Source: an uncultured Bacilli bacterium
Lineage (GTDB): Bacteria; Bacillota_I; Bacilli_A; RF39; UBA660
Assembly (NCBI GenBank): GCA_947629315.1
Contig: CANRDB010000001.1
Coordinates: forward strand, 4,829-68,828
DNA length: 64,000 bases
Reading direction: 5' to 3'
Position numbers and translations under genes: made by a program. The notes beneath the pieces were generated by a model. That model was not told the DNA's origin. It saw only the letters and a program-made list of their open reading frames with translations, and did not search any database. Positions 1-42,547 of the stretch are shown here, in pieces (the stretch's first letter is position 1; the number at the start of each line of letters is the position of its first letter).

Positions 1-1217
1 TTTCTTTTTTCTTGATGGATATCTAGTTCTAATCGTTTCATTTGAAGAAAATCAGTTGTTTTTACAACGGTTGAACCTACCTTTACCATCGCCTCCAAAG
101 GAATTTGAATAAGACAACCACTACTGGCCTCTTTCACTCTCTTTTTACCAAGATAAATGACATCTATTTCTTTTCCTACATCCTCTTTTCCTAAGATGCG
201 AATTCCATCCTGAACATGGATATCAGCAGACAATTTAATTTCTACGGTCGTCGGAGTTTTTTTGGTAACTACCCCTACCGGTACTCCCATATGATTGGGT
301 CTATATTCATTGATAAATTGGTGATAATCCTCATGAAATAAAAAGCCTTTTGTAAATCCTCTATTGAAGATCTGTAACAATTCTTCTTGATCTTGGGAAG
401 ATATCTCTATTTTTCCTGTTTGAACATAGGAGTCAATTGCTTTTCGATAAATAGAAGTAACCACATATACATATTCCGGTCTTTTCATTCTTCCTTCTAT
501 TTTGAAACTATCCACATGATTGTCAATTAAAGAAGAAAGATTTTCAAGAGTATTTAAATCTTTCGTACTTAATAAATAAGAATTGGTATTCTTTTTCTTA
601 CCATCCACAAGTAAATCGTAAGGTTGTCGACAACATTGTGCACAAGTTCCACGATTTCCACTTCTTCCTCCAATTAAACTACTCATTAAGCACTGACCAG
701 AATAGGAAATACAAAGGGATCCATGGATAAAGATTTCCATTTCTAAAGAAGTATGTTCCCGTATTTTTTTGACCAGTTCAATAGGTGTTTCTCGCGCTAA
801 TACCACCCGCTTGATTCCTAATTCTTCTAGTAGTTTTACACCCTCTAAATTGTGGACATGCATTTGGGTAGAAGCATGAATTTCTAACGAAGGATACAAT
901 TGATGAAGTAAATCCATCATACCTAAATCTTGGACAATTACCGCATCCGCAGAAATCGTTTGCAGAAACTCTACATATTCCAAAAAATGTTTTACTTCCG
1001 ATTCGTAGATTAAGGTATTAATAGTAACATATACTTTTACACCATATAAATGGGCATACGTAATGGCTTCTTTTAATTGTTGCTCATTAAAATTGGTCGC
1101 AAAACTACGCGCACCGTACAAATTTCCCGCTAAATAAACTGCATCACATCCACCTTGAATGGCAGCATACAAACTTTCCATACTACCTGCTGGCGCTAAC
1201 AACTCTGGCTTTTTCAT
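1..1217 (-). CDS. Peptidase U32 family protein (collagenase-like; YegQ/PrtC-type), 3' end runs off window
   Basis: Minus-strand translation starts at ATG 1217..1215 and reads MKKPELLAPAGSMESLYAAIQGGCDAVYLAGNLYGAR..., the canonical U32 N-terminus. The ORF stays open to the window edge and is absent from the track only because it is truncated. Confidence 0.65.
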   Translation of the reverse strand, partial: MKKPELLAPAGSMESLYAAIQGGCDAVYLAGNLYGARSFATNFNEQQLKEAITYAHLYGVKVYVTINTLIYESEVKHFLEYVEFLQTISADAVIVQDLGMMDLLHQLYPSLEIHASTQMHVHNLEGVKLLEELGIKRVVLARETPIELVKKIREHTSLEMEIFIHGSLCISYSGQCLMSSLIGGRSGNRGTCAQCCRQPYDLLVDGKKKNTNSYLLSTKDLNTLENLSSLIDNHVDSFKIEGRMKRPEYVYVVTSIYRKAIDSYVQTGKIEISSQDQEELLQIFNRGFTKGFLFHEDYHQFINEYRPNHMGVPVGVVTKKTPTTVEIKLSADIHVQDGIRILGKEDVGKEIDVIYLGKKRVKEASSGCLIQIPLEAMVKVGSTVVKTTDFLQMKRLELDIHQEKR

Positions 1218-1274
1218 AAGACATCTCCATTCCCTCTTATTATATAGAAAAAAAGAAGATTTGAAAACGTTTTT

Positions 1275-2099
1275 TCAATCTTCTTTGATATGATTTGTTA
1301 AAGGGGCAATCGTTAACCCACGCGATTCAATATAGGAAACAATATTTGGAAATTCCTCTAGGAATTGATTAGTCACTTCATACGTCAAAAAAGTCCCCGG
1401 CTTTAAAATTTTCTTGGTCGTCTGTAATGGTTTATGACGAATTACTTGCTCGGTAGTAATAGAATAATAGTGATAATCCTGACAGAGCGTATGGAGTTGT
1501 TCATCTTGTGTAGCGCTAAAGCAAAGGAGTGGTTCTTGTTGATAGGTAAGAAGTTTCTGTCTCATGGCAAGAAAATCTTTTTCTTGATGATCTGTTAAGA
1601 GAATTTGATGACCATTTTGAATAGCCTGTTCTATTACTTCAGATTGACTTTGAAATTGATAATTCTGTAATACCAAAGACACCTTATAATCGCCTAATTT
1701 CTCTAAAACAGAAGACAAATTTTTATGATCAGTCAGAAGGATGATACTCACCATTTTTTTCTTCGCATTGCCATAGGGAATCCATTTGTCTAAATAATTA
1801 TCTAAATTAGATACCGGTTTCGTCTTTACATACTGTAAATAATCTGGATTGTAAGTACCTATCTTTTGCATTTCTCGGTAGCTCGCATCTACATCTACTT
1901 TCATAGATGGCAGTCCTGGAACTACAAATGAGTCAAAAACTAAAGCATTTTCTCCTTCCTTTTGGTATTGATTTTGATCACTCTTAATTTGAACCATAAT
2001 ATCATCTACTTCTTTGACGACGGTAGCTGTTTGATTGGTTAAGAAAAAACTAAAACAAAGAAGCGCCAAAATCCCGATATATTCAAAAAAACGTTTCAT
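1275..2099 (-). CDS. Hypothetical membrane-anchored/secreted protein (possibly a divergent polysaccharide deacetylase/YibQ-like); start probably at MKRFFEYIGIL
   Basis: 286-aa ORF with an N-terminal hydrophobic segment. No clear catalytic motif was recognised. Confidence 0.35.
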   Translation of the reverse strand: MKRFFEYIGILALLCFSFFLTNQTATVVKEVDDIMVQIKSDQNQYQKEGENALVFDSFVVPGLPSMKVDVDASYREMQKIGTYNPDYLQYVKTKPVSNLDNYLDKWIPYGNAKKKMVSIILLTDHKNLSSVLEKLGDYKVSLVLQNYQFQSQSEVIEQAIQNGHQILLTDHQEKDFLAMRQKLLTYQQEPLLCFSATQDEQLHTLCQDYHYYSITTEQVIRHKPLQTTKKILKPGTFLTYEVTNQFLEEFPNIVSYIESRGLTIAPLTNHIKED

Positions 2100-2188
2100 A
2101 AACCACCTACTAGAGTATATGAAAAAGGATATCATTTATCACTAATCACCAAAACAAAATCCCTGCATATTCTATTCATGAAAGGAGA

Positions 2189-2434
2189 ATGTCTATGTTT
2201 AACAATAGCAATAACATGGTTCCAAATCCTAGTATGCCAGTCTCTTACTCTCCTGCTGTCCAGGATGAACGTGTTGGGTTTTTGGGTCCATTCTTATTAG
2301 GAGGCATTACGGGAGGACTCGTTGCCCCTTTCTTCTATGGCGGAAATTATGGGGGAAACTACGGTGGTTATAACCCTCCATACTATACCAATAATTACTA
2401 CTACCCACCTTATCCATACTATGGACCTTATTAA
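2189..2434 (+). CDS. Small Gly/Tyr/Pro-rich protein (possible spore-coat-type low-complexity protein)
   Basis: 81-aa ORF preceded by an AAAGGAGAA ribosome-binding site. C-terminal half is GGNYGGNYGGYNPPYYTNNYYYPPYPYYGPY. Confidence 0.45.
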   Translation: MSMFNNSNNMVPNPSMPVSYSPAVQDERVGFLGPFLLGGITGGLVAPFFYGGNYGGNYGGYNPPYYTNNYYYPPYPYYGPY

Positions 2435-2532
2435 AAAGTACTGACATGGTAAACTAATTTACCAATCAATTTTTTTAGAAAGAAAATGGGTGGCGAAGAA
2501 CTGCACCAAAAAAGTCCAACCAATGGACTTTT

Positions 2533-3219
2533 TCATTTGCCTAAATATTGAAAAATTTGACTCATATCGACACTATATTCTTTATAGTTATGAGGATTAA
2601 CATACACTGGTACTTGTCTAATCTGATATTGATCTAAAACAGAATCAATTTCTTGAAAGAACCATTCACTTTGAAAGTGATAAAGGATTTGATTCTCAGG
2701 ATTTTGATACTGAGCTTCTAACCGATACGGATGTCTTCCATTAATCGTTACCTGCTCATCCAAAGATACATCCTCAATTTTTGCATAAATAATAAAATGA
2801 TAAGAAAAAATTCTTTTCTTTTTATAGGATATATAAATAGGAATCGATAAGAAGATACAACCGATTAGAGCAAAGATTCCACCGGAGAGAATAAAAACCC
2901 ATAGAGGTGCTTCCTTGATAGCGAACTCTACTATTCGATGGGGATTATTAGAGTCATAGTAGATGGTTATCTTCTCCCCCTCTTCCATCGAAGCAGAAGT
3001 AGGAAGTTTTTCTCTATAAATATCATCACCGATAGTGTATTGAACATATACAGAGCGATTGCCATTTTCATCCGTTTCCACTTTAGTCACAATGGCTTCT
3101 TTTTCAAGATAGGTACTCATCGACTTTTGAACGCTCCAAAAGGCAACCAACTCTATCGACCCTACGAGTACAAAAATAACCCCCATGAATGTTAATATTT
3201 GTTTCATACTATTCACCAT
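2533..3219 (-). CDS. DUF3592-like membrane protein
   Basis: 228 aa with an N-terminal TM, a soluble domain (KVETDENGNRSVYVQYTIGDDIY...) and a second TM. Confidence 0.4.
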   Translation of the reverse strand: MVNSMKQILTFMGVIFVLVGSIELVAFWSVQKSMSTYLEKEAIVTKVETDENGNRSVYVQYTIGDDIYREKLPTSASMEEGEKITIYYDSNNPHRIVEFAIKEAPLWVFILSGGIFALIGCIFLSIPIYISYKKKRIFSYHFIIYAKIEDVSLDEQVTINGRHPYRLEAQYQNPENQILYHFQSEWFFQEIDSVLDQYQIRQVPVYVNPHNYKEYSVDMSQIFQYLGK

Positions 3220-3257
3220 TATTAGTATACCATGATTTTTCTAAATAAAAAAGGAAG

Positions 3258-4826
3258 CTATTTTGCTTCCTCTGTTGCTCTAGTTTCTCGAATGACAGTA
3301 ACCTTGATAGTACCAGGATATTGTAACTTTTCCTCAATTTGATTTTTGATATCACGAGCCACTTTATGACTAGCTACATCATCAATCTCTTCTGGTTTTA
3401 CCACTACACGAAGTTCACGACCTGCCTGCATAGCATAAGCTTTATCAACTCCAGAGATATCATTAGCAATCTCTTCCAAATCATGAAGTCTTTGCACATA
3501 GTTCTCAAGAGAATCATTTCTAGCACCAGGTCTACTCGCAGATACAGCATCCGCAATCGCCACTAATTCCGAAATAACGGAAGTAGGTGCGGTATCCCCG
3601 TGATGAGATTCAATGGCATTGATAACAACACTATTTTCTTTATAGCGTTTAGCAAGAGAACTACCAATCTCGACATGGCTACCTTCCATTTCATGATCAA
3701 TGGCTTTTCCAATATCATGAAGTAAACCAGCTCTTTTAGCAAGCATGACATTCTCCCCTAACTCGGCAGCCATAATTCCCGCTAAATGAGCGACCTCAAT
3801 AGAATGGGTCAACACATTTTGACCATAACTGGTTCTAAAATGCAATTTTCCTAATGTCTCAATGAGTTCGGAATCCATCTTCGTAATTCCTAATTCAAAT
3901 AAGGCTGCTTCTCCATACTCTAATATCTTTGCTTTCATCTCTTTTGCCGTCTTATCGTATATTTCTTCAATTCGTGCGGGATGAATTCGACCATCTTTAA
4001 TTAACGTTTCAATCGTCACCCGTGCAATTTCACGACGTAATGGATCAAAACTAGAAAGAACAATTGCCTCTGGAGTATCATCAATAATTAAATCGACACC
4101 CGTTACAGCTTCAATCGTTCGTATATTTCGTCCCTCTCTACCAATAATTCGACCTTTCATGTCCTCACTTGGTAAATCGACTACCGTTACGGTTTGCTCT
4201 GAAGATACATCACTAGCATATCGTTGCATCGAAGAAATGAGCATACTTTTCGCATTTCGATCAGCCACTAATGCGGCTTCTGCCTCTTGCTCCTTAATAT
4301 AAGTAGCAATTTCTAATGACATCTCTTCTTCTACTTTTTTCATGACAATTTCTCTAGCTTGTTCTTGATTATATCCTGCAATTTTTTCCAGTAACTCATA
4401 TTGTTGTTTTTTTATTTCTTCCACTTTTGCTTGTTCGTCTTGGATATCATTTTGTTTACTAATAAGATTATTTTCTTTCTCCTCTAAAAGATTTTCCCGA
4501 TTTTGAAGAGACTGATCCCGTCTATTAATATTCTCTTCACGAGAATCCAAGCGTTGCTCTGTCTTCTTTAATTCATTTTTTCTCTCGCGAATCTCTTCCT
4601 CGGCTTTTTTCGTAAGTTGGTTAGCTTCCTCTTTCGCTTCCGCTAAATAATCTTTTTTTATTTGTTCTGCCTCTAATTTGGCATTTCCTAATAAATCTTC
4701 CACTTTCTCAGCTGTCTTTATATTCCGTACATAATGGAAGATAAACATTACAATTATTCCAACAACAAGTCCTGCTAGGACTAGCAAAATGGAGATTAAA
4801 ATATCTGGCATACTTAACTCCTCCAT
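3258..4826 (-). CDS. rny: Ribonuclease Y
   Basis: 522 aa with N-terminal TM, coiled coil, KH domain ([12 protein letters not shown]) and HD domain ([17 protein letters not shown]...LLHDIGKA). GGAGG ribosome-binding site upstream. Confidence 0.92.
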
Positions 4827-14451: not shown

Positions 14452-14528
14452 GTCTCAGTAGCTCAGCTGGATAGAGCATCGCCCTTCTAAGGCGAGTGTC
14501 AGGGGTTCGAATCCCTTCTGGGACACCA
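14452..14528 (+). tRNA. tRNA-Arg (anticodon TCT), CCA encoded
   Basis: Cloverleaf GTCTCAG/TA/GCTC-AGCTGGATA-GAGC/A/TCGCC-CTTCTAA-GGCGA/GTGTC/AGGGG-TTCGAAT-CCCCT/CTGGGAC-A-CCA. Confidence 0.9.
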
Positions 14529-14537
14529 TTCGAGAAT

Positions 14538-14561
14538 AACTTGCTTCGGCAAGTTTTTTTT
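14538..14561 (+). terminator. Rho-independent terminator after tRNA-Arg
   Basis: aacttgc-ttcg-gcaagtt hairpin followed by a T8 run. Confidence 0.7.
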
Positions 14562-14593: not shown

Positions 14594-14630
14594 TTCAAAT
14601 TTACATTCTTTCCTATTTCATGATATAATG
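14594..14630 (+). promoter_or_regulatory. Putative extended -10 promoter (TTTACA-18-TGaTATAAT) for the SecA-like gene
   Basis: caaatTTACAttctttcctatttcaTGaTATAATgataaaag lies upstream of the 14652 start. Confidence 0.4.
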
Positions 14631-14651: not shown

Positions 14652-17600
14652 ATGAGGTGTCACATGAGTCAATCGGATAAATTAAAACAAATAACAGGTA
14701 GAGTAAAACGAGAAATGGACCGCACCATTCGTGAAATTAATCGTTACTATGCCAGTTATAGTCAAGAATTAGAAAACAGACAGATTCTAGATCCTAACAA
14801 CGAAGAACAAAGGGCTTTAGCAGAGCAATTCTTTCAAAGAGAGACAGAAAATCTAAAACAGGAATTACATCAATTCATCGAATCTGGCATCAATGAAGAA
14901 GATGCCTTAAAAAGTGAATTACCTCGCGCTTATGCTTTAGTCAAAACAGCGAGTAAATTTTTATGGAACAAGCCTCACTATGATGTTCAATTAATGGGTG
15001 GTATTCTTTTAAATGATGGATATGTTTCCCAAATGGCTACTGGGGAAGGAAAAACGCTAACAGCTGCCCTCCCCGCCTATTTAAATGCTCTTCTCGGTAA
15101 AGGAGTACATGTCTTAACACCAAATGCCTATCTAGCAAAAAGAGACCAAGAAGAGATGGGGGAACTCTACGGCTTACTAGGTCTATCTTGTGGTCTTGCC
15201 AATACTGAACGATTCGATTTTACACAGGCAGATGTACAGCGCCGAATGGATGAAATTATAGCGCGAGAAGTTTCCGAACTTTCTTATCAAATCGACTGTT
15301 CTTCAGCAGGAACTAAAAAAGGACGAAAAACGGATACGGAAACAAGCCAAAGAAGAATTAAAAAATGAATGTCTCGCAAGAAAAAGAAAAGTATATCAAA
15401 TGGATATTGTCTATGGAGCAACCCATGCCATTGCTTTCGATTATCTATGGGATGGTCTTGCGCAAGAGGAACAAGGGACCGTACAACGGATTGGACAACC
15501 AAACTTTGCTATTATCGATGAGGCAGATGACGTACTTTTTGACAGTGCGAGAACTCCTTATATTATTTCCGGTTCTCAAGAAGATGAGGAATTGAGAATT
15601 CGAAGTGAAGATGCCGAAAATGTGGTGAAATCTATCAAACAGGCAAATGAGGCAGTTTCCTATCTATACGATACCATTCAATTTTGGCAAAGAAAAAATG
15701 GAGAAGTTCTAGAAGGAGAAATCCCTGAAAATGAGAAACACAAACGAAAAGATTATGTCTCTTTTGAAAATGACATGAATCTAGCGCTCATTACGACATC
15801 GCAAACTCGTGAATGTGAATTAACCACCCTAGGAGAAACGATTATTTTTCAAAAGTACTATGGACAACAAATTCAAGAGATATTAAATAAAAATCAAGAT
15901 CTTATTATGTCATTGGAACAAAATGGAGCTCCCCTACTAAAATCGAATGTGGACTATTTCATTAATTTAGATGGAGAGATTTCTCTTGCTCCTCGCGCAT
16001 TTGCTTACTTAGTCGCGGGAGAATACATCTCAGAGTTATCTAATCTATTTGTTCATTTCCGTGGGAAAGAACTACTCCAAGATAGTGAATTTATTCAAAA
16101 TGCTTTGAAAGCATGGTTCACGTATCAAGAAGGACATGATTATGCCTTTGATGAGAAAACTTCATCAGTAGTACCAATCATTAACGGTCGAATTTACAAA
16201 GGTAGAAAATACGCTAAAGGATTTCAACAAGCTCTAGAAGAAAAAACCAAAGTATTATTACAAAAGCAATTGGGAGATAGAGCGCCAAAAATCAACGAAT
16301 CCAGACTAACAGAGACATTAGCGTCTATCCCTACCAATGCTTTCTTTGCTCGCTACCAGAAAGTTGGAGGAATGACGGGTACTTCTGCTGTTTTTGCTTT
16401 CAATAACCTTTATGGTCTAGATTCCTATGCGGTACCGAGAAACCGTCCTCGACAAGTTATCGATCACGGAGAGAGATTCTATACAAATAAGGATGCGAAA
16501 TATGAAGCTATTTTCCAATTGGCATTACAAGCCTATCAAACAAAACAACCACTCCTTATTTCTACCACTTCTACGGAAGAGAGTGAACTTCTACAGAAAT
16601 ATTTAATATCTCGATTAGAACAATATCAAAGAGGACTTCCAGAACGGGAAAGAAGAGCGATTAAGATTCCAGTTTTAAATGCCAGTGTTACCAAGTTGGC
16701 AGATGAAGCTAAAATTATATCTAACGCCGGTATTCCTGGGGCGATTACCATTGCAACTGAAATGGCTGGTCGTGGAACAGATATTAAATTAGGAGGAGAA
16801 GTTCCTGATAAACAAGAATTAATTCAGTCCATGCTTAAAATTAAAGTAAGGTCTCTTGTGGAAAAAAGAAAAAAAGCAGGTCTTGTCGATGAACAAAAAT
16901 ATAAAACACAACTGACTTATAAAAAAAGAATAGACCAAGAAGCAAGACAGTGGATTATTGATAACATCGGTATGGATGCCATTGCCAAAGAAATTGAAGA
17001 ACCTTATCGCCTATTAAAACAAGAAAAAGAACAACGAGAAAGTTTTATTAAAAACAACTCAGCGTTTAAAGGATTAAAAGTTGTCGTTTGTGGACATTTC
17101 CCATCTGCACGGACAGATGACCAAGTCAAAGGTCGATGTGGAAGACAAGGTGATCCAGGAGAATATATCTTCCTAAGTGATCCTGATGATTTAGCGCATG
17201 TTGGTATCAATCCTACTACCATTGAACGTCTCAAGATTATCGCTAATAGCCAACCAGATCACTGCATCGTAGAAACAGCGAACTCCAAACTATTCCACCT
17301 TCGAAAAATGATTTTATCCGCACAACGTCATAACGATAATATGAGTCATGAAAACATTCTCTCCTCTCTTCAATTTGATGCCGCTATCAGTACTTGCCGA
17401 GAGAGTGTTAGAAAAGTAACTGATCGATTCAAGCAAACAGAAAATTACATATCTTATATGAAGATAGCGATTGATAATACCTGTCAAAGTATTCTAGAAG
17501 GTTCTTCTGAAAATAAGAACTATACTTATCCTGATATAGAACGAAGTACCATCCAAAAGGCACATCTTAATCTTCCAAAAGTATGTTCTCTTTGTGAAGA

Positions 17601-18366
17601 CTTCCTTGGGGTAGAGATATCCCCTGAACTACTCGCATCCGCTAGAACAGTTCGGGATGTGAAAAATATAATCGAACAGAAAAGTACTCAGAGATTAGAA
17701 GTCTATATCGATCAACAGAAAAAGGAACAAATCAAAAAGTTAAAAGAGAAATATCAAAAACATAATGCGAGAATCTTAAACATTTCGGAAATCGTCAATT
17801 TATTCCGACAGACAGGAATTCAAGGATTAAAAGGTTATGTGCAAGAGCGTCTTAACTTCAAAAAATATGCAAAACTTTCCGATATCGAATTAGAAGCGGA
17901 AGTTACCGAAACGCTCAATGAATCTTTCAAAGAAAAATTTTATCAAACTATCAATCGTGCATGGGATAAATTTGAAGAAGATATTGAGGAATTTAAATTG
18001 CAAGTACAATGGACGAATCAATTTGAGTCTCATCCGTTGTCACCAGAAAGCATTCAAAGTTCTATCCAACGTGATTTCTTTCACTGGATGGATACATACC
18101 AAGCAAGACTCGTCCATGATACGATTCATCCAAGCATTTCTAAAGAGAAAGGTCCAAAGGAAGTGTATCCCGTAAGAATTACGACCGAGGGCATCCAAAG
18201 AGTTGCCGATGATTATGATGAAGAATTACAGGATGAAATTACCAACATTTCGGAAGAGGCATCTGTTCTTGGAGTACTTTCTAGTGATGAAATCGTCCCA
18301 TACAAATTAAAGCCATACGTCAGTATGCCAAATCGAAACGTAGAAAACAGAGGAAGAAGAAGATAA
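14652..18366 (+). pseudogene. Divergent SecA-family preprotein translocase ATPase (SecA2-like paralogue, about 1,226 aa if intact) interrupted by a +1 frameshift in an A-run
   Basis: ORF 14652..15368 carries SecA NBD1 ([66 protein letters not shown]). ORF 15400..18366 continues in the +1 frame with DIVYGATHAIAFDYLWD...IIDEADDVLFDSARTPYIISG, GMTGTS, VPRNRP, ATEMAGRGTDIKLGG and KGRCGRQGDPGEYIF. The downstream frame is open from 15262. Removing one A from the A6 run at 15315-15320 gives ...[20 protein letters not shown]... (compare B. subtilis SKDEKREAYAADITY). Confidence 0.6.
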
Positions 18367-18447
18367 TTCTTCTTTTTTCATTCCCTTATGCAACTTCATT
18401 ACTCCTTTTTATATTCTTCACGTACCTTATAATAGGAGGTTAAAAAT

Positions 18448-18717
18448 ATGAATGATGAAATATATCAATATGCTCTACAAAAAATTGAGTGTGATAGTCA
18501 ATTCAAGCCAATTGGATGTTATGGTAATTCCCGTGGCAGTACTGGCCCAACTGGCCCTACCGGTCCGACTGGTCCCCAAGGACCCGCTAGCATCACCATA
18601 GGTACCACAACAACAGGCGCTCCAGGAACAAGTGCAGCTGTTACCAATTCTGGTACTAATCAAAATAGTATTTTAAATTTTGTGATTCCTGCAGGAGCAA
18701 CTGATGCTATGTCATAA
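18448..18717 (+). CDS. BclA-like collagen-like (GPT-repeat) protein with C-terminal beta-domain; candidate 5' segment (C1) of an interrupted exosporium-type collagen gene
   Basis: MNDEIYQYALQKIECDSQFKPIGCYGNSRGSTGPTGPTGPTGPQGPASITIGTTTTGAPGTSAAVTNSGTNQNSILNFVIPAGATDAMS. A GGAGG ribosome-binding site is upstream. The final gga gca act g|at codons carry the junction motif seen at the other element boundaries. Confidence 0.6.
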   Translation: MNDEIYQYALQKIECDSQFKPIGCYGNSRGSTGPTGPTGPTGPQGPASITIGTTTTGAPGTSAAVTNSGTNQNSILNFVIPAGATDAMS

Positions 18718-18742
18718 ATCACAAAAAAAGAATTGATTAGAA

Positions 18743-20977
18743 TCAATCCTCAATTTCTTTAATCAACATTTGATATAACGCACGATTTCCTTCCTCTGTT
18801 AAATGAATTTTATCCACTCGTACATATTCTTTATGTTGTTGAATCTCTTCATAAAAAGGAATAATATGGAGAGACGATATTCCCAATGTTTCTAGTAATA
18901 TCTCGTCCTCTTCTGTCATCGCTACTACATATAACTCATTTTCTTGGCACAATTGGAAAACTGTTTGTATTTCTTGTTCCAATCTTGGTACCTGACTATC
19001 AAAAGCTACTACTAATCGATAAGTTAACGTATTACTATCCGCAGCTTTTTGAAGTTCTTGTTGCAAATCTTGCCAAGTAAAATCTTGCCGAACAATAAAC
19101 TGTGCTTGTTGATATTCCTGATGTAGTTCATTAAAAATATTCACTAAAACATCATTACCGTAAAAGGTAATTTTATTTTTTAATTCTTCTTCATGATGAT
19201 GAATAATCTCTTCTTTTTTCTGTTGATATCGATCTAGATAAACTTGATAAATAGATTGATAAATTAAGTTGGTGTAAGCCTTTCTTCCTTCTGGAGTTAA
19301 GTGGATACCATCCGCATAAAAATACTTTGAATGTCCTTGTGATGCAGTCTCCCAATCAATAATATGTAAATTAGAATGACTCTTACTTAACTCTTTTAAT
19401 TTACTATTTACATGGACATCTTTATCGTTAGTAACCGTAATCCAAAAGACATCTCTATCACCACACGTTTGTAAAATTTCTTCCTTACAAGAAGAAGAAC
19501 AATCTCCATTCGCACCCAAATTCAATATTACAGGATTACCTAACAGATTACTATCCTCTAATTCTTCTAAAATACCGTTCGCTACCCAAATAGAACGTGA
19601 TACCTTCGCATCAAAATATCCATTTGGAAATTGTTTATAGAGATTATCAACAGCTCCTAACATAATAGAATCCCCGACTCCAACTACGGATAACTCAGAA
19701 ACAATCTTTTGAATTTCTTGTTCCCCATTCTCTAAATCCTCTAAAACAGAGAACCAATCTTCTTGTTCCTGTTGTAATCGATCCGCATACTCTTTTTGTT
19801 TTTGTTGAATAACCTCTTCATTAGCCGCTAACTCTTCTTTTAGTCTTTTCATTTCTGCCGTATGATCCTTCGTTTGTGCATAACAATAAACACCAGGAAC
19901 ACAGATGACACACAATATGATAGCCATCGCTGCATGCATTCTCGTTCTAGCATGGGGTCGACTACTGATGCTAAAATGAAAAACGGAACCTACTACAAGC
20001 ACTCCTAAAAGAATCGATAAAATCCGTACAGAATCCGACATTGAAAAGGCTTGCAAAAAGTAAATAATCGGATACTGAACCAAGTAGATGCAATAACTTC
20101 TATCTGAAAACCAATGAACAATTCGGTTTCCTACCCCTGCTAATTTGTTTACCATCAAAGTACTATAATCAATCATCCGACAAGTAATAAGAGATACTAT
20201 CAACATTGCTACTGCCCAAGAAGGTGCAGAAGCATCGATTGTTAAAAATAACCAAACTAAGAGAACAAAATATCCTCCAAAAAGACCATAGGCAATCAGA
20301 GAATGTTTCATGTTTTTTAGAATAAGTGGATAATAATAAAACTGAATAAACCCTAAAGTCATTCCCCAAAATAAGGAAAACATTCTCGTAAACGTATGAT
20401 AGTAAACCACCATAATATCTTGCGTGCCACTCATTTGATAAAAATACCAAGCACTTCCTATCGATACTACCAATAATAGTAAACAAGGAATCATTTTATG
20501 AATATGATCTCCTATTTTACGTAATATTTGATAGAAGAATGGAAAAAGCAAATCAAATTGCAATAAAATAGAAATATACCATAAATGCATAAATGGAGAA
20601 TCTAAGTGTCTAGCAAAATAATCTAAATTCGCCCCTAATTGCCAAAAATTATTATATCCTAACAAAACAGATGTTGTCTCTGGTTTTAAATTCAACCATG
20701 TATACTGGGAACAAAAAAACACAACAAAAAGAGTTAAGAACACAGTCAATAACAAAGGAAAATATATTTTAGTAAACAGTCTCTTATAATATTCCCAAAT
20801 AGAAAAATGATTCTTATGAAAAGCTGAAACGCACGATAGATAGCCACTTAACACAAAGAAACAACAGACCGCTAAATAGCCTCCTTTTAAAACATGCAAA
20901 TGATAAAGCAAAACGGCAATGCATGATAACACTCGTAAATAATCTAGTGCATAATAATACTTCTTAGTACTTTCCAT
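18743..20977 (-). CDS. Acyltransferase-3 family membrane protein fused to an SGNH/GDSL hydrolase domain (OatA-like O-acetyltransferase)
   Basis: 744 aa with about 10 N-terminal TM helices (YALDYLRVLSCIAVLLYHLHV...), then a coiled coil, then an SGNH-like domain (VVGVGDSIMLGAV...). Confidence 0.75.
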   Translation of the reverse strand: MESTKKYYYALDYLRVLSCIAVLLYHLHVLKGGYLAVCCFFVLSGYLSCVSAFHKNHFSIWEYYKRLFTKIYFPLLLTVFLTLFVVFFCSQYTWLNLKPETTSVLLGYNNFWQLGANLDYFARHLDSPFMHLWYISILLQFDLLFPFFYQILRKIGDHIHKMIPCLLLLVVSIGSAWYFYQMSGTQDIMVVYYHTFTRMFSLFWGMTLGFIQFYYYPLILKNMKHSLIAYGLFGGYFVLLVWLFLTIDASAPSWAVAMLIVSLITCRMIDYSTLMVNKLAGVGNRIVHWFSDRSYCIYLVQYPIIYFLQAFSMSDSVRILSILLGVLVVGSVFHFSISSRPHARTRMHAAMAIILCVICVPGVYCYAQTKDHTAEMKRLKEELAANEEVIQQKQKEYADRLQQEQEDWFSVLEDLENGEQEIQKIVSELSVVGVGDSIMLGAVDNLYKQFPNGYFDAKVSRSIWVANGILEELEDSNLLGNPVILNLGANGDCSSSCKEEILQTCGDRDVFWITVTNDKDVHVNSKLKELSKSHSNLHIIDWETASQGHSKYFYADGIHLTPEGRKAYTNLIYQSIYQVYLDRYQQKKEEIIHHHEEELKNKITFYGNDVLVNIFNELHQEYQQAQFIVRQDFTWQDLQQELQKAADSNTLTYRLVVAFDSQVPRLEQEIQTVFQLCQENELYVVAMTEEDEILLETLGISSLHIIPFYEEIQQHKEYVRVDKIHLTEEGNRALYQMLIKEIED

Positions 20978-21122
20978 ATTTCAAACCTCATTCATTGTGA
21001 TTATATATCATAAAGCCTTAAAATTCAAGACACTTTACGTCAATCCTAACTAATATTTTGTGAGAAAAAAACATGATTATTTGTTTCATTTTATTTTATG
21101 CAATTAGAAAGGAGTTATACTG

Positions 21123-23120
21123 TTGAATCAAAAAAGAGTGGCATTATATCTACGATTATCCAAAGAAGATATCGACAAGCCAACCAAGTTCTCTATCAGC
21201 GAAAGTATCAAAAATCAAGAACTATTACTGCGTGAAGAAGTGAAAAAACACCCTGATTGGGTCGTAGTAGCTGTCTATTCTGATGAAGACTTTTCAGGAG
21301 CAGGAACTTATCGACCAAGCTTTGACAAAATGATTCATGCCTGTGAAAAGCACATGATTGATATCATTCTCTGTAAAAGTCAGTCCCGTTTTTCTAGAGA
21401 TATGGAATTAATTGAAAAATATATTCATAACAAATTTAAAGAATGGAATATACGATTCATTAGTATCGTAGATAATGCCGATACTGATAACGATGGCAAT
21501 AAAAAATCTAGACAGATTAATGCTCTTGTCAATGAATGGTTTCTAGAGGATTTATCCGATAATATTCGGGCAACTTTACGAACAAAATGGCAGCATGGAG
21601 AATGTACCGCTGCTTTCGCTAAATATGGATTTCTAAAAGATCCCCAACATAAAAATCACCTAATCATAGATACGGTTGCTAGTCAAACCATTCAAGAAAT
21701 TGCTCATCTCTTTTTAGAGGGAAAAGGTCCAGAAACCATCGCTCACATTTTAGAACAGAAGCATATTCCTAGTCCTTATGAATACAAACTACAAATGGGA
21801 AGTAAACTAAAAATTCCTTTGCTTTCCTTAAACCATCCAAAAATAATTACTAAAAACGGAAAATATATTTTTACCCTTTTTCCAAGTGGAGAACCAATAG
21901 ACCATGTCGTCCTATCCATCCTACCATTTCAAGATTACGATATGACACTAACTCTCATAAAACAAAGTGGCAATGTAAAGGTTTATTATTCCCAGGAGAA
22001 ATTCTCTTCTGCTATCGAAACCGTATTGCCGGTTGAACATTCTTCATTTTGGAGACAATTGCCTATCAATCTTTCTATTTCTCATATTCAACTACTGGCT
22101 ATCTATTGTCTTCCAAACAATTTAGAAAAAACTTATTTAGAATGGGAAATAAACATCCATACCCTACCGTCTCATGATTTTTCTTTAAACATCCAATCCT
22201 TTGATGCAATACACCAACCAATTGATTTTTGGCAGTATCGAATCAGAAAAAAATATCAGTGGAATAGTCGGACAATCTATCACATTTTGAAAGATGAAAC
22301 TTATCATGGTACCTTAATTCAAGGAAAAACAAAGCGAATCAGTTATAAAAATCATACTAGTATTGCTACTCCCAAAGAGCAATGGTATGTTCAAGAAAAT
22401 ATTCTCCCTAAAATTCTAGATGATCAAACTTGGATAGCTATTCAAAATAAATTACAACTACATCCACGCGCAAGCAAAAATGGAAAACACCCTATCTTTA
22501 CTGGAAAAGTTTTTTGTGGAGTATGTGGAAAACCTCTTCAAAAAAACTCGAGCAGTTCTCTTGCTTCCCCTGTTAAAAAAGAATATTTAATTTGTAAAGC
22601 AAGAAAAGAACATTGGAAGAATTGTGAAAACAAAAAATCATTTCCCGTTTTAGAATTACAAAAATTAATCATTACTCAATTTCAAAATTTATGGAATTCC
22701 TATTACGATATGACTACCTTAAAGCAGATTCATAAGGAAGAACCCCATCATCAAACTATAGACGATCTCATGAAAGAAGAACAAAATTTACAAGAAATTA
22801 TCCAGCAGAATAACCAAATTCTTTATCAATTATACAAAGATAAAAGCACTGGCCTCATGGATGATTCTTGTTTTCATACCCTACTTCTACAAAATCAACA
22901 GGAAATGGATACTTATCACCAAAGATTGCAAATGATTGCCCAAGAGTTAAAACAGATTCAAACGAAACAGGAATTTTTCATGTCTACTGTGTGTGAATTT
23001 CTCAATACTCATTCCTTTGAAGACTATTTTTCAACCATTCTACAGCATTTTATTAGCAGCATTTTCATTGGAAAGCTGAACCATCATCAAAGAACAATCC
23101 AAATTCATTGGAAAATCTAA
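21123..23120 (+). CDS. Large serine recombinase 1 (resolvase/invertase catalytic domain plus recombinase, zinc-ribbon and coiled-coil domains), TTG start
   Basis: [13 protein letters not shown] (nucleophile Ser), [40 protein letters not shown], and a C-terminal CGVCGKPL...C zinc ribbon. About 60% identical to recombinase 2 over the catalytic domain. Confidence 0.85.
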
Positions 23121-23132
23121 TTTTGTGGTTTA

Positions 23133-23270
<138 letters not shown>

Positions 23271-23281
23271 TTATCTGTTTG

Positions 23282-24796
23282 TCAAAATATCCACTCTATA
23301 GTAACTACTCTTTTTCCCTGTTCTATATTGCCAATTTGTATTCGTTGAATAAAATTCTTTACCGTCTTAAGGGAAAGTTCAAGTTTTCTTTTAGAAAAAG
23401 AAAATGACATTTGTTCTTTTTTCATATTGGCAAGAGTATTTGATAACTTCTCTAACTCTTTGATATAACTTTTTTTGAGATTTTGAAAAACCTCATCATC
23501 TAGTTGTTGTTGAACATAATCGTCATACACTTTTTTTAAGCCTCGTTCTTTTTGATGGTAATCTTTTTCTAATCGTTCAAATTCTTTCTTATATAATAGA
23601 TTCTGTTCTATACTATATTGCTTCTCATATTCTAAAAGCAATTGTTCGTCGACAAATTGATGATAAAACTTCAAAAATTCTTTGAACACTAAAGATTCTA
23701 TCACATCCAAACGAATAGAGGTATGATTATCACAATGTTGCCAATAACTTCTTCTATCACGACAAACTAAATACGAATACACAGAATGGCTAGAAGAATT
23801 TTTTTCAAAGGATTGTCCACATTTTTGACAATATATTTTTTTACTAAACTCATAAATTTTACCCGTTTTAGATTGAATTCTCGTCTTTTGTTGCATTCTT
23901 CTTTGTACCTCATTCCACATCGATAAAGAAATAATCGGGTCATGCTGATGAGATACAACAATCCAATCCTTTTTTTGAAGAGAAATTACCTTTTTATTTT
24001 TATAGGAAATTTTTCGATATTTTCCCTGTACTACACTACCAATATACACTTCATTTTTTAAAATATCTGCAATTGTTTTTTCACTCCATTGATTACTAGT
24101 CGATGGTCCATAATATTTAGAACCTATTTCTTTTTTATATTGACTGGGAGTTGGAATCCCTTGATGATTCAAACACTGCTTAATTTTAGAATATCCATAA
24201 CCTTTCGCATATAACGCATATATTTGTTGAACATATTTAGAAGCAATCGGGTCAATTTCTAAATGATTTTTATCTTTCTTTTGGTAACCAAAAGGCGCAA
24301 AAGAACCGGTAAATAGACCAACTTCTTTTTTATTTCGTAATGTTTTACGAATATTTATAGAAGAATCTTCCAAATACCATTCATTCATCAAAGCATTGAT
24401 TTGTCTGGTTTTTTTATTTTCTTCTACAGAGGTATCAGCATGATCAACTAAACTGATAAAACGAACGTTCCACTCTTTAAATTTATTATGAATATATTGT
24501 TCAATTACTTCTAAATCTCTCGAAAAGCGAGACTGACTCTTACATAATACAATATCAATATTTCCTTGTTCACAATCTTTTAGCATGCGGATAAAAGCTG
24601 GTCTTTCTCTATCGATACCAGAGTAATCCTCATCAATATAAATATCAAAGATATCCCATCCTTCTTCTTGAACTTTTTGAAGTAACATTCTCCTTTGATT
24701 TTGAATACTTTCACTAAAGTCTTTTTTATCAATATCTTCTTTGGATAATCGCAAATAGATTGCTACTCTATTGTTCCCTATCATAAGATTCCTCAT
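23282..24796 (-). CDS. Large serine recombinase 2
   Basis: [55 protein letters not shown] and a CQKCGQSF...C zinc ribbon. Its 3' end abuts and overlaps the C2 collagen fragment. Confidence 0.85.
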
Positions 24797-24983
24797 TTTG
24801 AGAAAGAATTTCTTGTTCTAATACCGCCAACAACTGACGATTAAAAGTTTCTTTCCTTTGTTCCATAGACTTTTCCTCATCATGGAATACATTGATTATT
24901 TCAATATTATATTTCATATTTTCACCATTACAAAATATGAAAAAAAGCGAAGATTTATATCTCCACTTCTTTCTCCTGCAAAA

Positions 24984-26012
24984 TCATTTTCGCTGTTGGC
25001 TAATATCTAATACCCATAAAATATTCGATGGTAGAATACTTCCACAATACGAGCATATCTTATCAAAGAGTCCCACATTGGCGCCACAATTGTGACATTT
25101 TTTCACACTATTCATCGTAAACTTCGGATAATAATTTTGATTACGAATCAAGGTTACTGTTTCTTTTCCCTGCACTTTTTTGATGCGACCATTGCGTTCA
25201 AAATACTTTCGAATAATAAAAGTAATTCGAATGGCAGGAATATTCCCCTTCTTGATAACTTTATAAGTATCATACTCTAAAATTTCAAAATCTACTAAAT
25301 CTTGATATTGAGGAAAAATTTTCTCATCATAGTAATGCACCAACAATTGGTAATTTAAATCTTGAATAATCTTTTGATTACTCATCCGAACTTTATCAAT
25401 CATAATTCTATCATTCCTTAAGTCACGATAGGTAATCACTTTTACCAAAAGATAAGGAATCAAAAGAAAAGTATACAATAGATGAAGAGTAAATAGCATA
25501 ACAGGTAGTGTCACGAACATCAACATAACGGCAATAAACCAAGGATACTCTCCTGACTGTAAAGTTCCCATAAACGATATACCTGTCAAAATCATGCAAG
25601 TGCTTCCCAAAAAGATTTTATACTTTTTCATAGAAAAAATCTGTTTAAAGGATTGTGTCAAATTTTTTTGATGAACTCCCTGTTCTAAATAAAAAGAAGC
25701 TCCACAATAAGGGCAACCATCGTAAAACTCTTTTTCAGTAGCATGATATCCACATTCAGAACAAGTAAATTCATTATCCCCTCTAGATAATGTCATTGTA
25801 TAAGTTATGTTATCATCAAATTTCTTTTCACGATAAAGACGTTTTCCACCTTGATAATAATTTTTCTCTATCTTATTAGCTTTATAAACAGAATCGTTTC
25901 GGTTTCCATTTAAAGTACGAACAAATAACTGATCTTTATGTCGAAAAATCTCCTCTACTACAAGATTCTTTTTAGCAAGTCTTTGTAAATGCATTTGTAA
26001 AGGACTTGGCAT
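24984..26012 (-). CDS. Hypothetical membrane protein with two CxxC...CxxC zinc-ribbon motifs (cargo of E_b)
   Basis: 342 aa. Motifs CSECGYHATEKEFYDGCPYCGASF and CHNCGANVGLFDKICSYCGS, with 2 TM helices in the middle. Confidence 0.5.
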   Translation of the reverse strand: MPSPLQMHLQRLAKKNLVVEEIFRHKDQLFVRTLNGNRNDSVYKANKIEKNYYQGGKRLYREKKFDDNITYTMTLSRGDNEFTCSECGYHATEKEFYDGCPYCGASFYLEQGVHQKNLTQSFKQIFSMKKYKIFLGSTCMILTGISFMGTLQSGEYPWFIAVMLMFVTLPVMLFTLHLLYTFLLIPYLLVKVITYRDLRNDRIMIDKVRMSNQKIIQDLNYQLLVHYYDEKIFPQYQDLVDFEILEYDTYKVIKKGNIPAIRITFIIRKYFERNGRIKKVQGKETVTLIRNQNYYPKFTMNSVKKCHNCGANVGLFDKICSYCGSILPSNILWVLDISQQRK

Positions 26013-26083
26013 ACTATCACACTCCTACTATTCTCATTATAACAAAAAAAGTCCTCATCACAACTATTTTTTTCTATTTTGAC

Positions 26084-26158
26084 AATGAACTATGGAGCAA
26101 CTGGTCCAGTAGGTCCTACTGGAGACGTTGGCCCTACGGGTCCTACTGCACTCACTTA
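26084..26158 (+). other. Collagen-like gene fragment C3 (24 codons)
   Basis: [24 protein letters not shown]. The gga gca act g|gt junction motif sits at 26093-26104, and a second junction cct act g|ca is at 26141-26149. Confidence 0.55.
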
Positions 26159-26256
26159 AAAGTGGCACTTTTGCCAAAAATTAGAACGAAAATAAGCACT
26201 TTACATTTCATTTGAAATATTATATAATACAAGTAACTAGAAAGAAGGGATTATAA

Positions 26257-27651
26257 ATGAAAAAAGTAGTAGGAACAGTAATGAAAGGGATGCTTGTTAC
26301 TTCAGGAGTTGTCACTGCTGTTGGTTGTACATTAGCTATCAGTAATCATTTGTTGAAATCAGATGATCTTGTTCTATCCAATCACAATGGTAGCGAAGTA
26401 AAACAAGCAAATGTTTTAGCGGTCGCTCAAAATCAAGTAAAGGAAGCGGAAGTTCAAGAGGCAAAAGCCAACCAAGAATTGACAAAAGCAACAAATGAAA
26501 AAGCAGAGGCAGAAAAAGAAGTTCAAAAAGCGAAAGAAACTGTGAAAGAGGTTCAAAAGGAAAAAAGCAAAGCCGAAGCACAATTAAAAGAAGCCAAAAC
26601 AGAAGAAGAAAGAAAACAGGTAGAAGATCAAATTAAAGTTTTAGAAGAAAAAGTGAAAGAAGCTGAAAATAATCAAAAAGCAGCAGAATCAAAAGTACAA
26701 GAAGCAGAGACTAAGGTTCAAGAGGCTGAAGTGAAAGTTCAAGAGGCTGAAGCCAAGGTTCAAGAAGCTGAGGCTAAAGTTCAAGAAGTACAAGAGACAG
26801 AAATGAAGAAACAAGAAGTAGAAAAACAAGTTCAAGAAGTTCTTCCAGCAAATCCTTCAAAAGAAGAAACTCAAACTACTGTCAAAGAAGAAAACACTAC
26901 CAAACCAGTTGAAAATAATCAACAAGTAACGACTCAAGAAACAAAGCAACCAGAGACAAAACAAACTGAAACGAAACAACCAGAGACAAAGCAAGTTGAA
27001 ACAAAACAGACTGAAACGAAAAAAGAAGAATCTTCAACAAACAATAATTCTTCTAATAATAGTTCTTCTAGATTAACGCAAGAGGCTTTAGAGGCTGCAG
27101 CGAGAGCAGAACAAAAATGGAATGAGGAATATCAAAAATTCCTTGCTGATCAAAAAGCAGAAGCAGATGCTAAAAAGCAAGCAAGAGATGAGGAAGCTAA
27201 AAAAGCAGAAGAGGCTGCTGAAAAAGAATTGGAAGAAAGAAGACAAAGAGAATCAACAGACAGTTTAAAGAACTTTGGTTCAGCGACTACTGATACCGTA
27301 TTTGGAGATAGAACTTTTACATTTGCTCAAAAGAATGTAGATTTACCATTTAATCCAGATATCAAAGAAAATCCAAAGAAAGTGACTTGTACAGGAGACC
27401 ATTGCGGAAAGAATGAACAAGGTTACATTTGGTTTGCTAGATTTAATAACAATTTAAATCTTGATATCTTTAAAGAACCTGGTAGTGATCGTTATGTAAG
27501 TAGTGTTCTTATTGGAAAACGTGGCGATGTAGAATATTGGACGCAATATGCACCAAGTGTTGTAAACGGTCATCAATTTGTAGAGTGGAAAGTAACAGAT
27601 ACTACTGAATATGGTATGAAAATTAAAGTTTATACTGCCATTTATAAGTAA
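26257..27651 (+). CDS. Surface-exposed coiled-coil (lipo)protein with KVQEAE repeats and a Cys-containing C-terminal domain (cargo of E_c)
   Basis: 464 aa. Signal peptide with lipobox-like TAVGC, tandem repeats AESKVQEAETKVQEAEVKVQEAEAKVQEAEAKVQE, and a PETKQ repeat region. A TTTACA-17-TATAAT promoter lies upstream inside the element. Confidence 0.6.
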   Translation: MKKVVGTVMKGMLVTSGVVTAVGCTLAISNHLLKSDDLVLSNHNGSEVKQANVLAVAQNQVKEAEVQEAKANQELTKATNEKAEAEKEVQKAKETVKEVQKEKSKAEAQLKEAKTEEERKQVEDQIKVLEEKVKEAENNQKAAESKVQEAETKVQEAEVKVQEAEAKVQEAEAKVQEVQETEMKKQEVEKQVQEVLPANPSKEETQTTVKEENTTKPVENNQQVTTQETKQPETKQTETKQPETKQVETKQTETKKEESSTNNNSSNNSSSRLTQEALEAAARAEQKWNEEYQKFLADQKAEADAKKQARDEEAKKAEEAAEKELEERRQRESTDSLKNFGSATTDTVFGDRTFTFAQKNVDLPFNPDIKENPKKVTCTGDHCGKNEQGYIWFARFNNNLNLDIFKEPGSDRYVSSVLIGKRGDVEYWTQYAPSVVNGHQFVEWKVTDTTEYGMKIKVYTAIYK

Positions 27652-27830
27652 TGAAAGAGCGAAACAATTCGCTCTTTTCTTTTGACCTATGATTAAAACT
27701 ATCCTTTTAGAATAATATACATTGAGGAGGTTTGATGATGAAAGTAATCAGTCATTTTAAAGATAATGGTGAAAATTTAACAAAAGTTATAGAAGAATTG
27801 TTAAAAAATATCATTCAAAAATAAAGGCAA

Positions 27831-30925
<3,095 letters not shown>

Positions 30926-30960: not shown

Positions 30961-31899
30961 TTATTGTATTAATGATGGAATACCTTGAACATCTACTTCC
31001 ATGCTATATCCATCGTCACCAATCGTAGCATCTGTAATAATCTTATCGATTATATCTACATAACTAGTTCCATAAGTATTATTAGCCGTCCGAATAACCA
31101 CACGAGCAGCTGTTACAGTATCTTTTTCTCTATAGGCATCTACTAAATTCATACCTTGCATATTATAACTAAACATCAAATACTGATTACCATTGACTGC
31201 TTGACGAGTAAGGGTTACATTTGTTGCCCCTGAACCTTCTATTTGTGCACGAAGTTCTTCATCACTATGACTACTAAGACTACTAAAACTTCCAGGAATC
31301 ATTTCAACTTGAGCAACCCATGTAGGATTATTCTCATCATCGGTAATTAATAGCCATTCTCCATCAACGGCTGTTGAATAATCTACTGGTACTTTATAAC
31401 TTACATTTCCTACTTTTACATTAAAGGTATTAGCAACTGGTGTAACAGATCCTCCACTAGAATTACTTCCCGTATTACTGTCGGAATTACTTCCTGAATT
31501 ACTAGTACTAACATCACACTTATCACCTTTACAACCGCCACCATTATTATCCTCTTTCTTATTAGAAACTAATAGAACTACTACAACGGCTACTGCAATC
31601 ACTACTACTGCTATCACGATAGCAATAATCATCTTATTATTTCCACCAGCCTTTGGTGGTACACTATTCATTGGTTGTTGCATCACTGGAGGAACTGGTG
31701 ATTGTGGTGCCCCAGGAACAGCTGGCATAACAGGTGTTACAGGGGATGCAGGTGCCCCTGGAGCGGCTTGTTCGATTGGTGCAACAGGTGTTGCAGGTGC
31801 TACTGGAGTTACAGGAGCAACAGGCGTTGCAGGTGCAGTTGGTGCTACTGGTGAAACAGGCTGAACTGCTGGTATTGAATTTGCATTATTTTCATTCAT
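30961..31899 (-). CDS. Membrane protein with proline-rich (PVAPV-repeat) cytoplasmic N-terminus, single TM and extracellular domain
   Basis: [35 protein letters not shown]...[20 protein letters not shown]..., with an N-terminal module paralogous to the 36709..38907 gene. Confidence 0.55.
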
Positions 31900-42493: not shown

Positions 42494-42547
42494 ATTATCA
42501 CCTTTCTTTACTATCATGAAATGATTATAAAATGAGAACTTAAAACT

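Follow-up and report, generated by a model that had tools for sequence, protein, structure and literature searches.

A long SecA-like ATPase gene interrupted by a one-base frame break in an uncultured Bacilli bacterium

We analyzed a 64,000-nucleotide stretch of contig CANRDB010000001.1 (GenBank assembly GCA_947629315.1, positions 4,829 to 68,828 of the forward strand; GTDB lineage Bacteria; Bacillota_I; Bacilli_A; RF39; UBA660), referred to below as the window. Two consecutive open reading frames (ORFs) at window positions 14652–18366 encode the parts of a SecA-like protein of unusual length, and the relation between these ORFs, the family to which the protein belongs and the nature of the break between them are the subjects of this study. 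The locus contains the following features.

14452–14528, + strand: tRNA-Arg(TCT), detected by ARAGORN and Rfam.
14538–14555: intrinsic terminator after tRNA-Arg, from a terminator scan.
14600–14629, + strand: candidate promoter of the sigma-70/sigma-A type, near consensus (TTTACA, 18-nt spacer, TG-TATAAT; 11 of 12 matches), proposed on the consensus match only.
14654–14666, + strand: Shine-Dalgarno sequence GAGGTG and probable start codon ATG 14664, from the sequence and the gene call on contig L001.
14652–15368, + strand: ORF1, encoding an N-terminal helical extension and the first half of NBD1, with the Walker A motif MATGEGKT at 15033–15056.
15262–15368, + strand: zone in which both frames are open, from the frame comparison.
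15315–15330, + strand: likely site of the extra base (A6 and A5 runs), from the homologue alignment.
15400–18366, + strand: ORF2, encoding the rest of NBD1, an enlarged PPXD, NBD2, a probable divergent scaffold/wing/IRA1 region and a disordered tail.
15517–15528, + strand: DEAD motif of NBD1, in ORF2.
16756–16797, + strand: TEMAGRGTDIKLGG, in the NBD2 part of ORF2.
17131–17160, + strand: GRCGRQGDPG, in the NBD2 part of ORF2, which also holds the NBD2 insertion.
18448–18717, + strand: collagen-like ORF of 89 amino acids (aa) with GPT repeats, preceded by the Shine-Dalgarno sequence AGGAGG and lying 81 nt past the stop codon of the SecA-like gene.

ORF1 and ORF2 encode 238 and 988 aa, respectively, in frames that differ by +1. 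The ORF2 frame is open from 15262 and the ORF1 frame closes at 15368, so that both are open over 107 nt and the net loss of 1 nt anywhere in this zone fuses the two ORFs. Removal of one A from the A6 run (15315–15320) inside aactAAAAAAggac (15311–15324) gave a single ORF of 1237 aa. The restored join aligned across the junction with all of the family homologues tested (22/22), and the SecA of Thermotoga maritima also aligned straight over it. ORF1 and ORF2 are two pieces of one SecA-family gene separated by a one-base break, as the original prediction had proposed. That prediction had also placed the break at 15311–15324. The sequence and its A6 run were confirmed there, but the exact site is not fixed, since the homologue alignment brackets the break at approximately 15296–15331, with the ORF1 frame homologous before and the ORF2 frame after, and this bracket also contains an A5 run (15326–15330). 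Because homology bounds the break only to this interval, the A5 run is an equally possible site, and the extra base most likely lies in one of the two runs. The last ~16 codons of ORF1 are out of frame, and the authentic reading ends by ~15320.

The first in-frame ATG of ORF1 is at 14652. The ATG at 14664 is located 4 nt after the Shine-Dalgarno sequence (14654–14659), and the gene call on contig L001, which is from the same species, begins at the equivalent position; ATG 14664 is therefore the likely start, from which the joined protein would have 1233 aa. As assembled, the product of ORF1 is a fragment of 238 aa (or 234 aa if translation begins at ATG 14664), in which Walker A is the only motor motif. 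ORF2 has no Shine-Dalgarno sequence before its ATG at 15400 and lacks Walker A, so a functional motor is not expected from the assembled sequence; at best, a Walker-A-less fragment of 988 aa would be made from ORF2. The same two properties of ORF2 led us to reject translational coupling and a deliberately split gene. Frameshifting by −1 was discarded as an explanation, since numerous stop codons close the third frame.

Pfam searches with the joined protein gave matches to SecA_DEAD (PF07517, 9e-74), P-loop_SecA (PF21090, 7e-37) and SecA_PP_bind (PF01043, 5e-7), the last over profile positions 57–110 only, which correspond to the C-terminal half of PPXD. No Pfam match was obtained in the joined protein for PF07516 (wing/scaffold) or PF02810 (SEC-C zinc motif). 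Walker A, DEAD, TGT, the arginine-finger motif GRGTD (GRGTDIKLGG) and motif VI GRxGRQG (GRCGRQGDPG) are present, and all fall in invariant columns of a 23-sequence family alignment. The protein thus possesses the NBD1/NBD2 motor motifs of the SecA superfamily (GEGKT, DExD, TGT, GRGTD and RxGRQG), and its PPXD is located within NBD1. The extra length is due to the N-terminal helical extension and to insertions of ~60 aa in NBD1, ~170 aa (family-specific) in the PPXD stem and ~85 aa in NBD2. The complete motor, the large insertions and the missing zinc-finger tail, all read from the bare sequence in the original prediction, were confirmed.

The AlphaFold2 (AF2) model of residues 38–1237, calculated from a 34-sequence family alignment, had a pLDDT of 80.9 and a pTM of 0.73. 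The 36 best matches of this model in the PDB (Foldseek) were all SecA or SecA2 proteins, with ~1100 columns aligned, and the highest TM-score was 0.77, to the SecY-bound, substrate-engaged Bacillus subtilis SecA (6ITC). The model shows a predicted SecA fold that is kept overall, including the scaffold helix and a region resembling the two-helix finger. The break region encodes a Lys-rich, low-confidence loop of the family-specific NBD1 insertion, and the pLDDT was <50 at model residues 175–183, just ahead of the junction. A profile of the last 388 residues was collinear with residues 585–771 of canonical SecA, with an hhalign probability of only 60%, and PF07516 matched one of the 23 family members, at 1e-4. 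There is no clear conservation of the tyrosine at the finger tip (canonical W..H..M..LR.GI.L..Y.Q.DP versus W..F......K.Q..LN here). Judging from the model and the profile, the C-terminal region appears to be a strongly diverged scaffold/wing/IRA1 followed by a disordered tail. A foreign C-terminal domain was rejected because of the structure match and the collinear profile. The divergence of the "400-aa" C-terminal region noted in the original prediction thus stands, but the region is probably not a foreign domain; it appears collinear with the SecA scaffold/wing/IRA1, to which a 62-aa insertion is added.

This helical insertion (QKKEQIKKLKEKYQKHNARILNISEIVNLFRQTGIQGLKGYVQERLNFKKYAKLSDIELEAEV...), at window ~17750–17935 (joined residues ~1033–1094), was found only in the window copy among the family. 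The window copy is about equally distant (39–42%) from most family members, the syntenic sister species included. Joined residues ~940–1010 (window ~17470–17680), at the position of the helical wing, resemble the four-helix bundle of acyl-carrier-protein (ACP)/PP-binding domains. Weak PF00550 matches were obtained in 6 of the 23 members, and ACP-like proteins of ~80 aa match positions ~87–160 of the C-terminal profile. The segment has no serine for phosphopantetheine attachment (DSL motif).

We searched 5.8 billion proteins and found ~40 clusters of 1000–1240 aa with 28–44% identity and the same Pfam pattern, also without PF07516 and PF02810. Below these clusters came canonical SecAs of 858–923 aa, which matched over the motor only. 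With the C-terminal profile, a search of 1.84 billion proteins yielded just 46 representatives at E≤1e-10, the longest having 1426 aa. The only name in ten clusters examined was "hypothetical protein [Firmicutes bacterium]" (MBE6151367.1), an exact look-up of ORF2 gave no record, and a literature search for long or third SecA paralogues gave nothing that matched the long family. In a genome-collection scan with universal SecA motif patterns derived from the family alignment, the matches were all canonical SecAs, from Bacteroidota and other phyla. A plasmid-borne family was rejected, since the plasmid collection gave only canonical SecAs at ~30% identity and no long-family member. The idea of a defence ATPase obtained no support, as no PADLOC model matched.

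All of the NCBIfam SecA and SecA2 models matched the SecA-like protein, each at about or below half of its curated cut-off. The housekeeping models gave 419 bits against a cut-off of 814 (TIGR00963) and 393 against 800 (NF009538). The SecA2 model of the accessory Sec system, TIGR03714, gave 352 bits against 930, and the models of SecA2-only systems gave 330 against 1085 (TIGR04397, B. anthracis), 254 against 725 (TIGR04221, mycobacterial) and 220 against 1100 (NF012136, Listeria). The window PolA was matched at 100% by a protein on a small ENA contig, followed by relatives at 82–90% and many more at 65–75%; the few named relatives are all "Firmicutes/Bacillota bacterium" metagenome-assembled genomes (MAGs). 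From these matches and the gene content, the host belongs to uncultured Bacillota and carries genes of sporulation (SpoIIIAH, GerE-like and GerM-like). The SecA-like protein belongs to a small, uncharacterized family of SecA-type ATPases of ~1000–1400 aa in uncultured Bacillota.

The window is ordinary chromosome and contains recA, rny, mreCD, radC, ftsK, eno, polA and serS with a T-box leader, along with further housekeeping genes. The tRNA-Arg(TCT) gene forms a boundary, with conserved core genes (eno and the spoIIIAH-like, gerE-like and gerM-like genes) upstream and a fast-evolving region downstream. Three synteny groups were recognized around the SecA-like gene.

Group a: eno-spoIIIAH-gerE-gerM-SecA-like gene-collagen-like mini-ORF, with a large serine recombinase further downstream (the window, L083 and L097, the last from the end of gerM to the recombinase only).
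Group b: rlmN-prpC-prkC-rsgA-rpe-...-nifS-trx-unknown-SecA-like gene-ppdk (L085, L086, L094 and L095; L090 for SecA-like gene-ppdk only).
Group c: unknown-xerC-like-SecA-like gene-Impact...uvrC-mutL-gyrB (L087–L089 and L093).

None of SecY2, Asp1-3 and GtfA/B was found in the window or beside the nine other family members inspected, and the linkage of an accessory Sec SecA2 to secY2, asp1-3, gtfA/B and a serine-rich-repeat substrate was seen neither in the window nor at the nine other loci. The positions of the gene are conserved in three synteny groups without SecY2, Asp or Gtf; it is therefore a stably inherited, vertical gene of the core genome and neither cargo of a mobile element nor part of an accessory Sec locus. 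The absence of accessory Sec genes nearby, together with SecA2 scores of 220–352 bits against cut-offs of 725–1100, does not agree with the earlier description of the protein as SecA2-like. No terminator was predicted between the SecA-like gene and the collagen-like ORF, and the latter is kept after the SecA-like gene in L083 and L097; PPDK or Impact/uvrC lies downstream in groups b and c. A dedicated role of the SecA-like protein in collagen export is speculative because no signal peptide is visible by eye in the collagen-like protein and because groups b and c lack this linkage. The suggested link to glycosylated surface proteins is likewise weak, given that a collagen-like ORF follows the gene in the window and two close relatives and the other two groups differ.

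As a rule, few proteins are better conserved than an essential housekeeping SecA. We compared the identities of the SecA-like protein and of neighboring proteins between the window and its relatives, with the following results.

Enolase, window versus L083: 92%.
PolA, window versus P0165 (on a 111,787-bp contig equal in length and sources to that of P0003, hence very probably the identical MAG contig): 90%.
FtsK, window versus L083: 85%.
GerE, window versus L083: 94%.
SpoIIIAH, window versus L083: 78%.
GerM, window versus L083: 69%.
SecA-like protein, window versus L083: 42%.

The third syntenic relative, P0013 of L097, was 44% identical to the window protein and 49% identical to P0003. In group b, the SecA-like proteins were 48–55% identical versus 43–92% (mostly 64–92%) for their neighbors, and in group c the value was 45% versus 91% for GyrB and 77% for MutL. 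Within the protein, the motor core showed 53–82% identity and the inserts and C-terminal region 15–35%; the NBD2 and NBD1 inserts showed 10–19% and 12–32%, respectively. The strong conservation of an essential, single-copy SecA was thus not observed (42–55% between orthologues versus mostly 64–92% for neighbors). Because the orthologues diverge far faster than the neighboring genes, unlike an essential SecA, the family is probably an accessory, non-housekeeping paralogue, with a canonical secA located elsewhere in the genome; no second secA was found in the 64-kb window. The view of the original prediction that this is not the housekeeping translocase is borne out by the orthologue identities and by scores at about half of the SecA equivalog cut-offs. 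The drop in identity to L083 at the tRNA-Arg gene (14452) is shared by the genes downstream: those upstream are 69–94% identical, and those downstream have lower values though gene order is kept (SecA-like 42%, collagen-like 56%, acyltransferase-3/SGNH 50% and recombinase 52%).

Comparison of 12.2 kb of the window with four Illumina contigs obtained independently from the same population (L001, L002, L091 and L092; ENA ERZ27249635 and ERZ27249643) revealed three substitutions, a deletion of 10 bp in one contig and no difference in homopolymer length. No other broken gene was found among the ~45 ORFs inspected in the window. The orthologue on L097 (ENA ERZ27249467 NODE_3597, 413–3900) is also split, into 965 aa (P0013) and an overlapping 205-aa ORF that holds the rest of the C-terminal region; its frame switch (−1 nt) lies in the C-terminal region, near an A7 run (3251–3257) and a G4 run (3269–3272). 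P0018 (957 aa) ends in an 18-residue tail that deviates from the family consensus; this third orthologue is probably frameshifted too. Because the homopolymers agree over 12.2 kb, the other genes are intact and the family has other broken alleles, we favor a real, recent, non-programmed inactivating mutation, a reading to which we give an even chance of being correct. Several points weigh against it. None of the independent contigs covers 15293–18420, and L001 ends at 15291, 22 nt ahead of the A6 run; scans of JGI metagenomes with an A-tract-tolerant DNA pattern and a species-specific C-terminal peptide found nothing. Apart from the break, the ORF shows no flaw in 988 codons and keeps every catalytic motif, as expected of an error, although a very recent mutation would leave the same picture. 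The breaks of L097 (~4x coverage) and P0018 come from low-coverage metagenome assemblies and may be errors themselves. The window itself has no canonical secA, and a role as a translocase is suggested by the predicted fold alone. A homopolymer error of sequencing or assembly, with a true A5 (or A4 in the neighboring run) and an intact protein of ~1233 aa, is accordingly a serious competitor, which we consider possible, if on balance doubtful: the change is a single base within or beside short A runs, ORF2 stays open for its full length with all motifs intact in a genome of 34% GC, and samples with the same species have ~2x coverage, so the data behind the assembly may be thin. The agreement with the independent Illumina contigs, the intactness of the other inspected ORFs and the independent frameshifted alleles of the family argue against such an error.

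The original prediction had also raised a slipped-strand phase switch. More broadly, the A run might be a functional switch that acts by phase variation, or by transcriptional or +1 ribosomal slippage on AAAAAAG to give some full-length protein. The homologous reading TKKDEKR is precisely what would result from +1 re-pairing of tRNA-Lys on A-AAA-AAG or from slippage of RNA polymerase. Frameshifted alleles are also seen repeatedly among the family members, and the gene is very variable, as contingency genes are. The A6 run is short for efficient slippage, however, and it is not statistically special in the window, where 104 runs of A≥6 were observed versus 60 expected from the composition, 8 of them within the SecA-like gene. 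All other full-length family members read the break region as one ORF. The sequence there is a non-conserved loop, and the comparison of A-tract length among orthologues showed that they have no A tract at this position, so the long, position-conserved tract of a phase-variable gene is lacking. Neither a conserved shift site nor a conserved two-ORF layout, as in programmed frameshifting, was seen, the break of L097 being elsewhere, and Rfam detected no stimulatory RNA element at the frameshift. A switch of either kind is quite improbable on this evidence. Least probable of all is that the gene encodes the sole, essential SecA in a long lineage-specific form, in which case the frameshift would be an artefact. 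The 64-kb window contains no other secA, the core-genome position is fixed, the candidate promoter of the sigma-A type is near consensus, the model has a full SecA fold, and other lineages also have long SecAs with insertions, such as Bacteroidota (model NF009536, 1118 positions) and, as inserts, T. maritima and T. thermophilus (PMC7023208). Against it stand identities of 42–55% between relatives that show 77–92% in PolA, enolase, GyrB and NifS, scores about half as high as the SecA equivalog cut-offs, and broken alleles in at least two species.

The 89-aa collagen-like ORF looks like the 5' part of a gene split by three tandem elements (window 18448–29831), each with a large serine recombinase.

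E1, 18703–23148: recombinase at 21123–23120, + strand.
E2, 23266–26102: recombinase at 23282–24796, − strand.
E3, 26148–29444: recombinase at 27831–29420, + strand.

The junctions carry (GCA)ACTG at 6/6 sites, within coding repeats of the G-x-y type, and imperfect inverted repeats bound each element. Excision of E1–E3 in silico gave one collagen-like ORF of 268 aa with an unbroken G-x-y run, which ends just ahead of a GT2-TPR glycosyltransferase gene (29840–30925). The elements resemble intervening elements of sporulation of the skin/SPbeta type, or a recombinase-driven switch. A mini collagen ORF and a recombinase are found at the same place in L083 and L097. E3 also contains a putative surface protein of 464 aa (26257–27651) with EAKVQE and ETKQ(P/T) repeats. 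A second putative surface protein, also repeat-rich and of 312 aa (30961–31899, − strand), is rich in Pro at its N-terminus (PVAP/TPVAP) and has a single transmembrane segment, and the G-x-y signal at 31688–31858 is the antisense strand of its gene. Neither putative surface protein gave a Pfam match. Elsewhere in the window, an ordinary T-box leader (42563–42743, − strand) lies ahead of the seryl-tRNA synthetase gene (41207–42580). The 10-bp deletion in the low-coverage contig L092, at window 47589–47598, splits the gene of a HerA-like ATPase (HerA_C, 47211–48680) into 131 and 328 aa; the window copy is intact (489 aa).

In its intact form, the protein would act as an ATPase of the SecA type, clamping unfolded polypeptide between PPXD and the motor and passing it on to a channel in the membrane, presumably SecYEG. 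The AF2 model is most like the channel-bound conformation of SecA (6ITC). The protein would serve beside canonical SecA as an accessory, non-essential translocation motor for a narrow and fast-changing set of clients or partners, and the fast evolution of its peripheral domains suggests co-evolution with such a client or partner. The locus lies beside homologues of spoIIIAH, gerE and gerM. A bolder proposal, which we regard as unlikely, is a third, so far unrecognized class of SecA motors, i.e., a hypervariable accessory translocation or unfoldase ATPase that co-evolves with clients of the cell or spore surface. Its client in the window would be the downstream collagen-like protein, with a gene assembled by three serine-recombinase excisions, and the recurrent frameshifts would represent on/off variation of the surface-assembly pathway in the population and not decay.

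The known SecA paralogues (SecA2 with or without SecY2) are ~800 aa long, occur in a few well-studied Gram-positive lineages and each serve particular surface or virulence proteins. A separate SecA-fold family of 1000–1400 aa would widen the range of specialized Sec motors and would exemplify the remodeling of peripheral domains (PPXD stem, wing and loop inserts) on a kept ATPase core. In uncultured gut Bacillota the gene holds a fixed place in the core genome, yet it diverges several times faster than its neighbors and has repeatedly been found broken. Such genes are now annotated as "hypothetical protein" or as split ORFs. The frameshift alone is ordinary and matters mainly as a hint of dispensability.

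Compared with the housekeeping SecA (SecA1; TIGR00963/NF009538; 1M6N, 3DIN and 6ITC), the SecA-like protein appears to have the common order of NBD1, PPXD, NBD2, scaffold helix, wing and IRA1, shares all of the ATPase motifs and, as an AF2 model, superposes on full-length SecA. Unlike the housekeeping protein, it has ~400 extra residues (the N-terminal extension and the insertions in NBD1, PPXD and NBD2), a C-terminal region that PF07516 does not detect, no SEC-C zinc tail and a score of 419 versus 814 bits, and its gene evolves several-fold faster than the neighboring housekeeping genes.

The SecA2 systems of Gram-positive bacteria, comprising the accessory Sec SecA2/SecY2 (TIGR03714) and the SecA2-only systems of Clostridioides difficile (6SXH), Bacillus anthracis, Listeria and mycobacteria, resemble the present case in that the protein is an apparently dispensable second motor of the SecA family without the zinc tail. 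The structural likeness of the AF2 model to C. difficile SecA2 was about as good as that to SecA1, and in one synteny group the gene adjoins a surface-type (collagen-like) gene with a glycosyltransferase near. In contrast, SecA2 proteins have ~760–800 aa versus 1000–1400 aa in the SecA-like family, and the best SecA2 score (352 bits) was below the housekeeping SecA score (419 bits), with all SecA2 scores under their cut-offs. Unlike at SecA2 loci, no SecY2, Asp or GtfA/B is near, and the hosts are uncultured gut or rumen Bacillota and not the known SecA2 lineages.

Insertions in SecA have been described in thermophiles, with 50 aa in NBD1 of Thermotogales and Aquificales and 76 aa in NBD2 of Thermales (PMC7023208). 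The NBD1 and NBD2 insertions of the SecA-like protein are located at the same two surface loops, and the frameshift falls within the NBD1 insert that aligned to the T. maritima insert. The thermophile proteins are housekeeping SecAs with conserved inserts, whereas in the SecA-like family no other part of the protein is as poorly conserved as the inserts.

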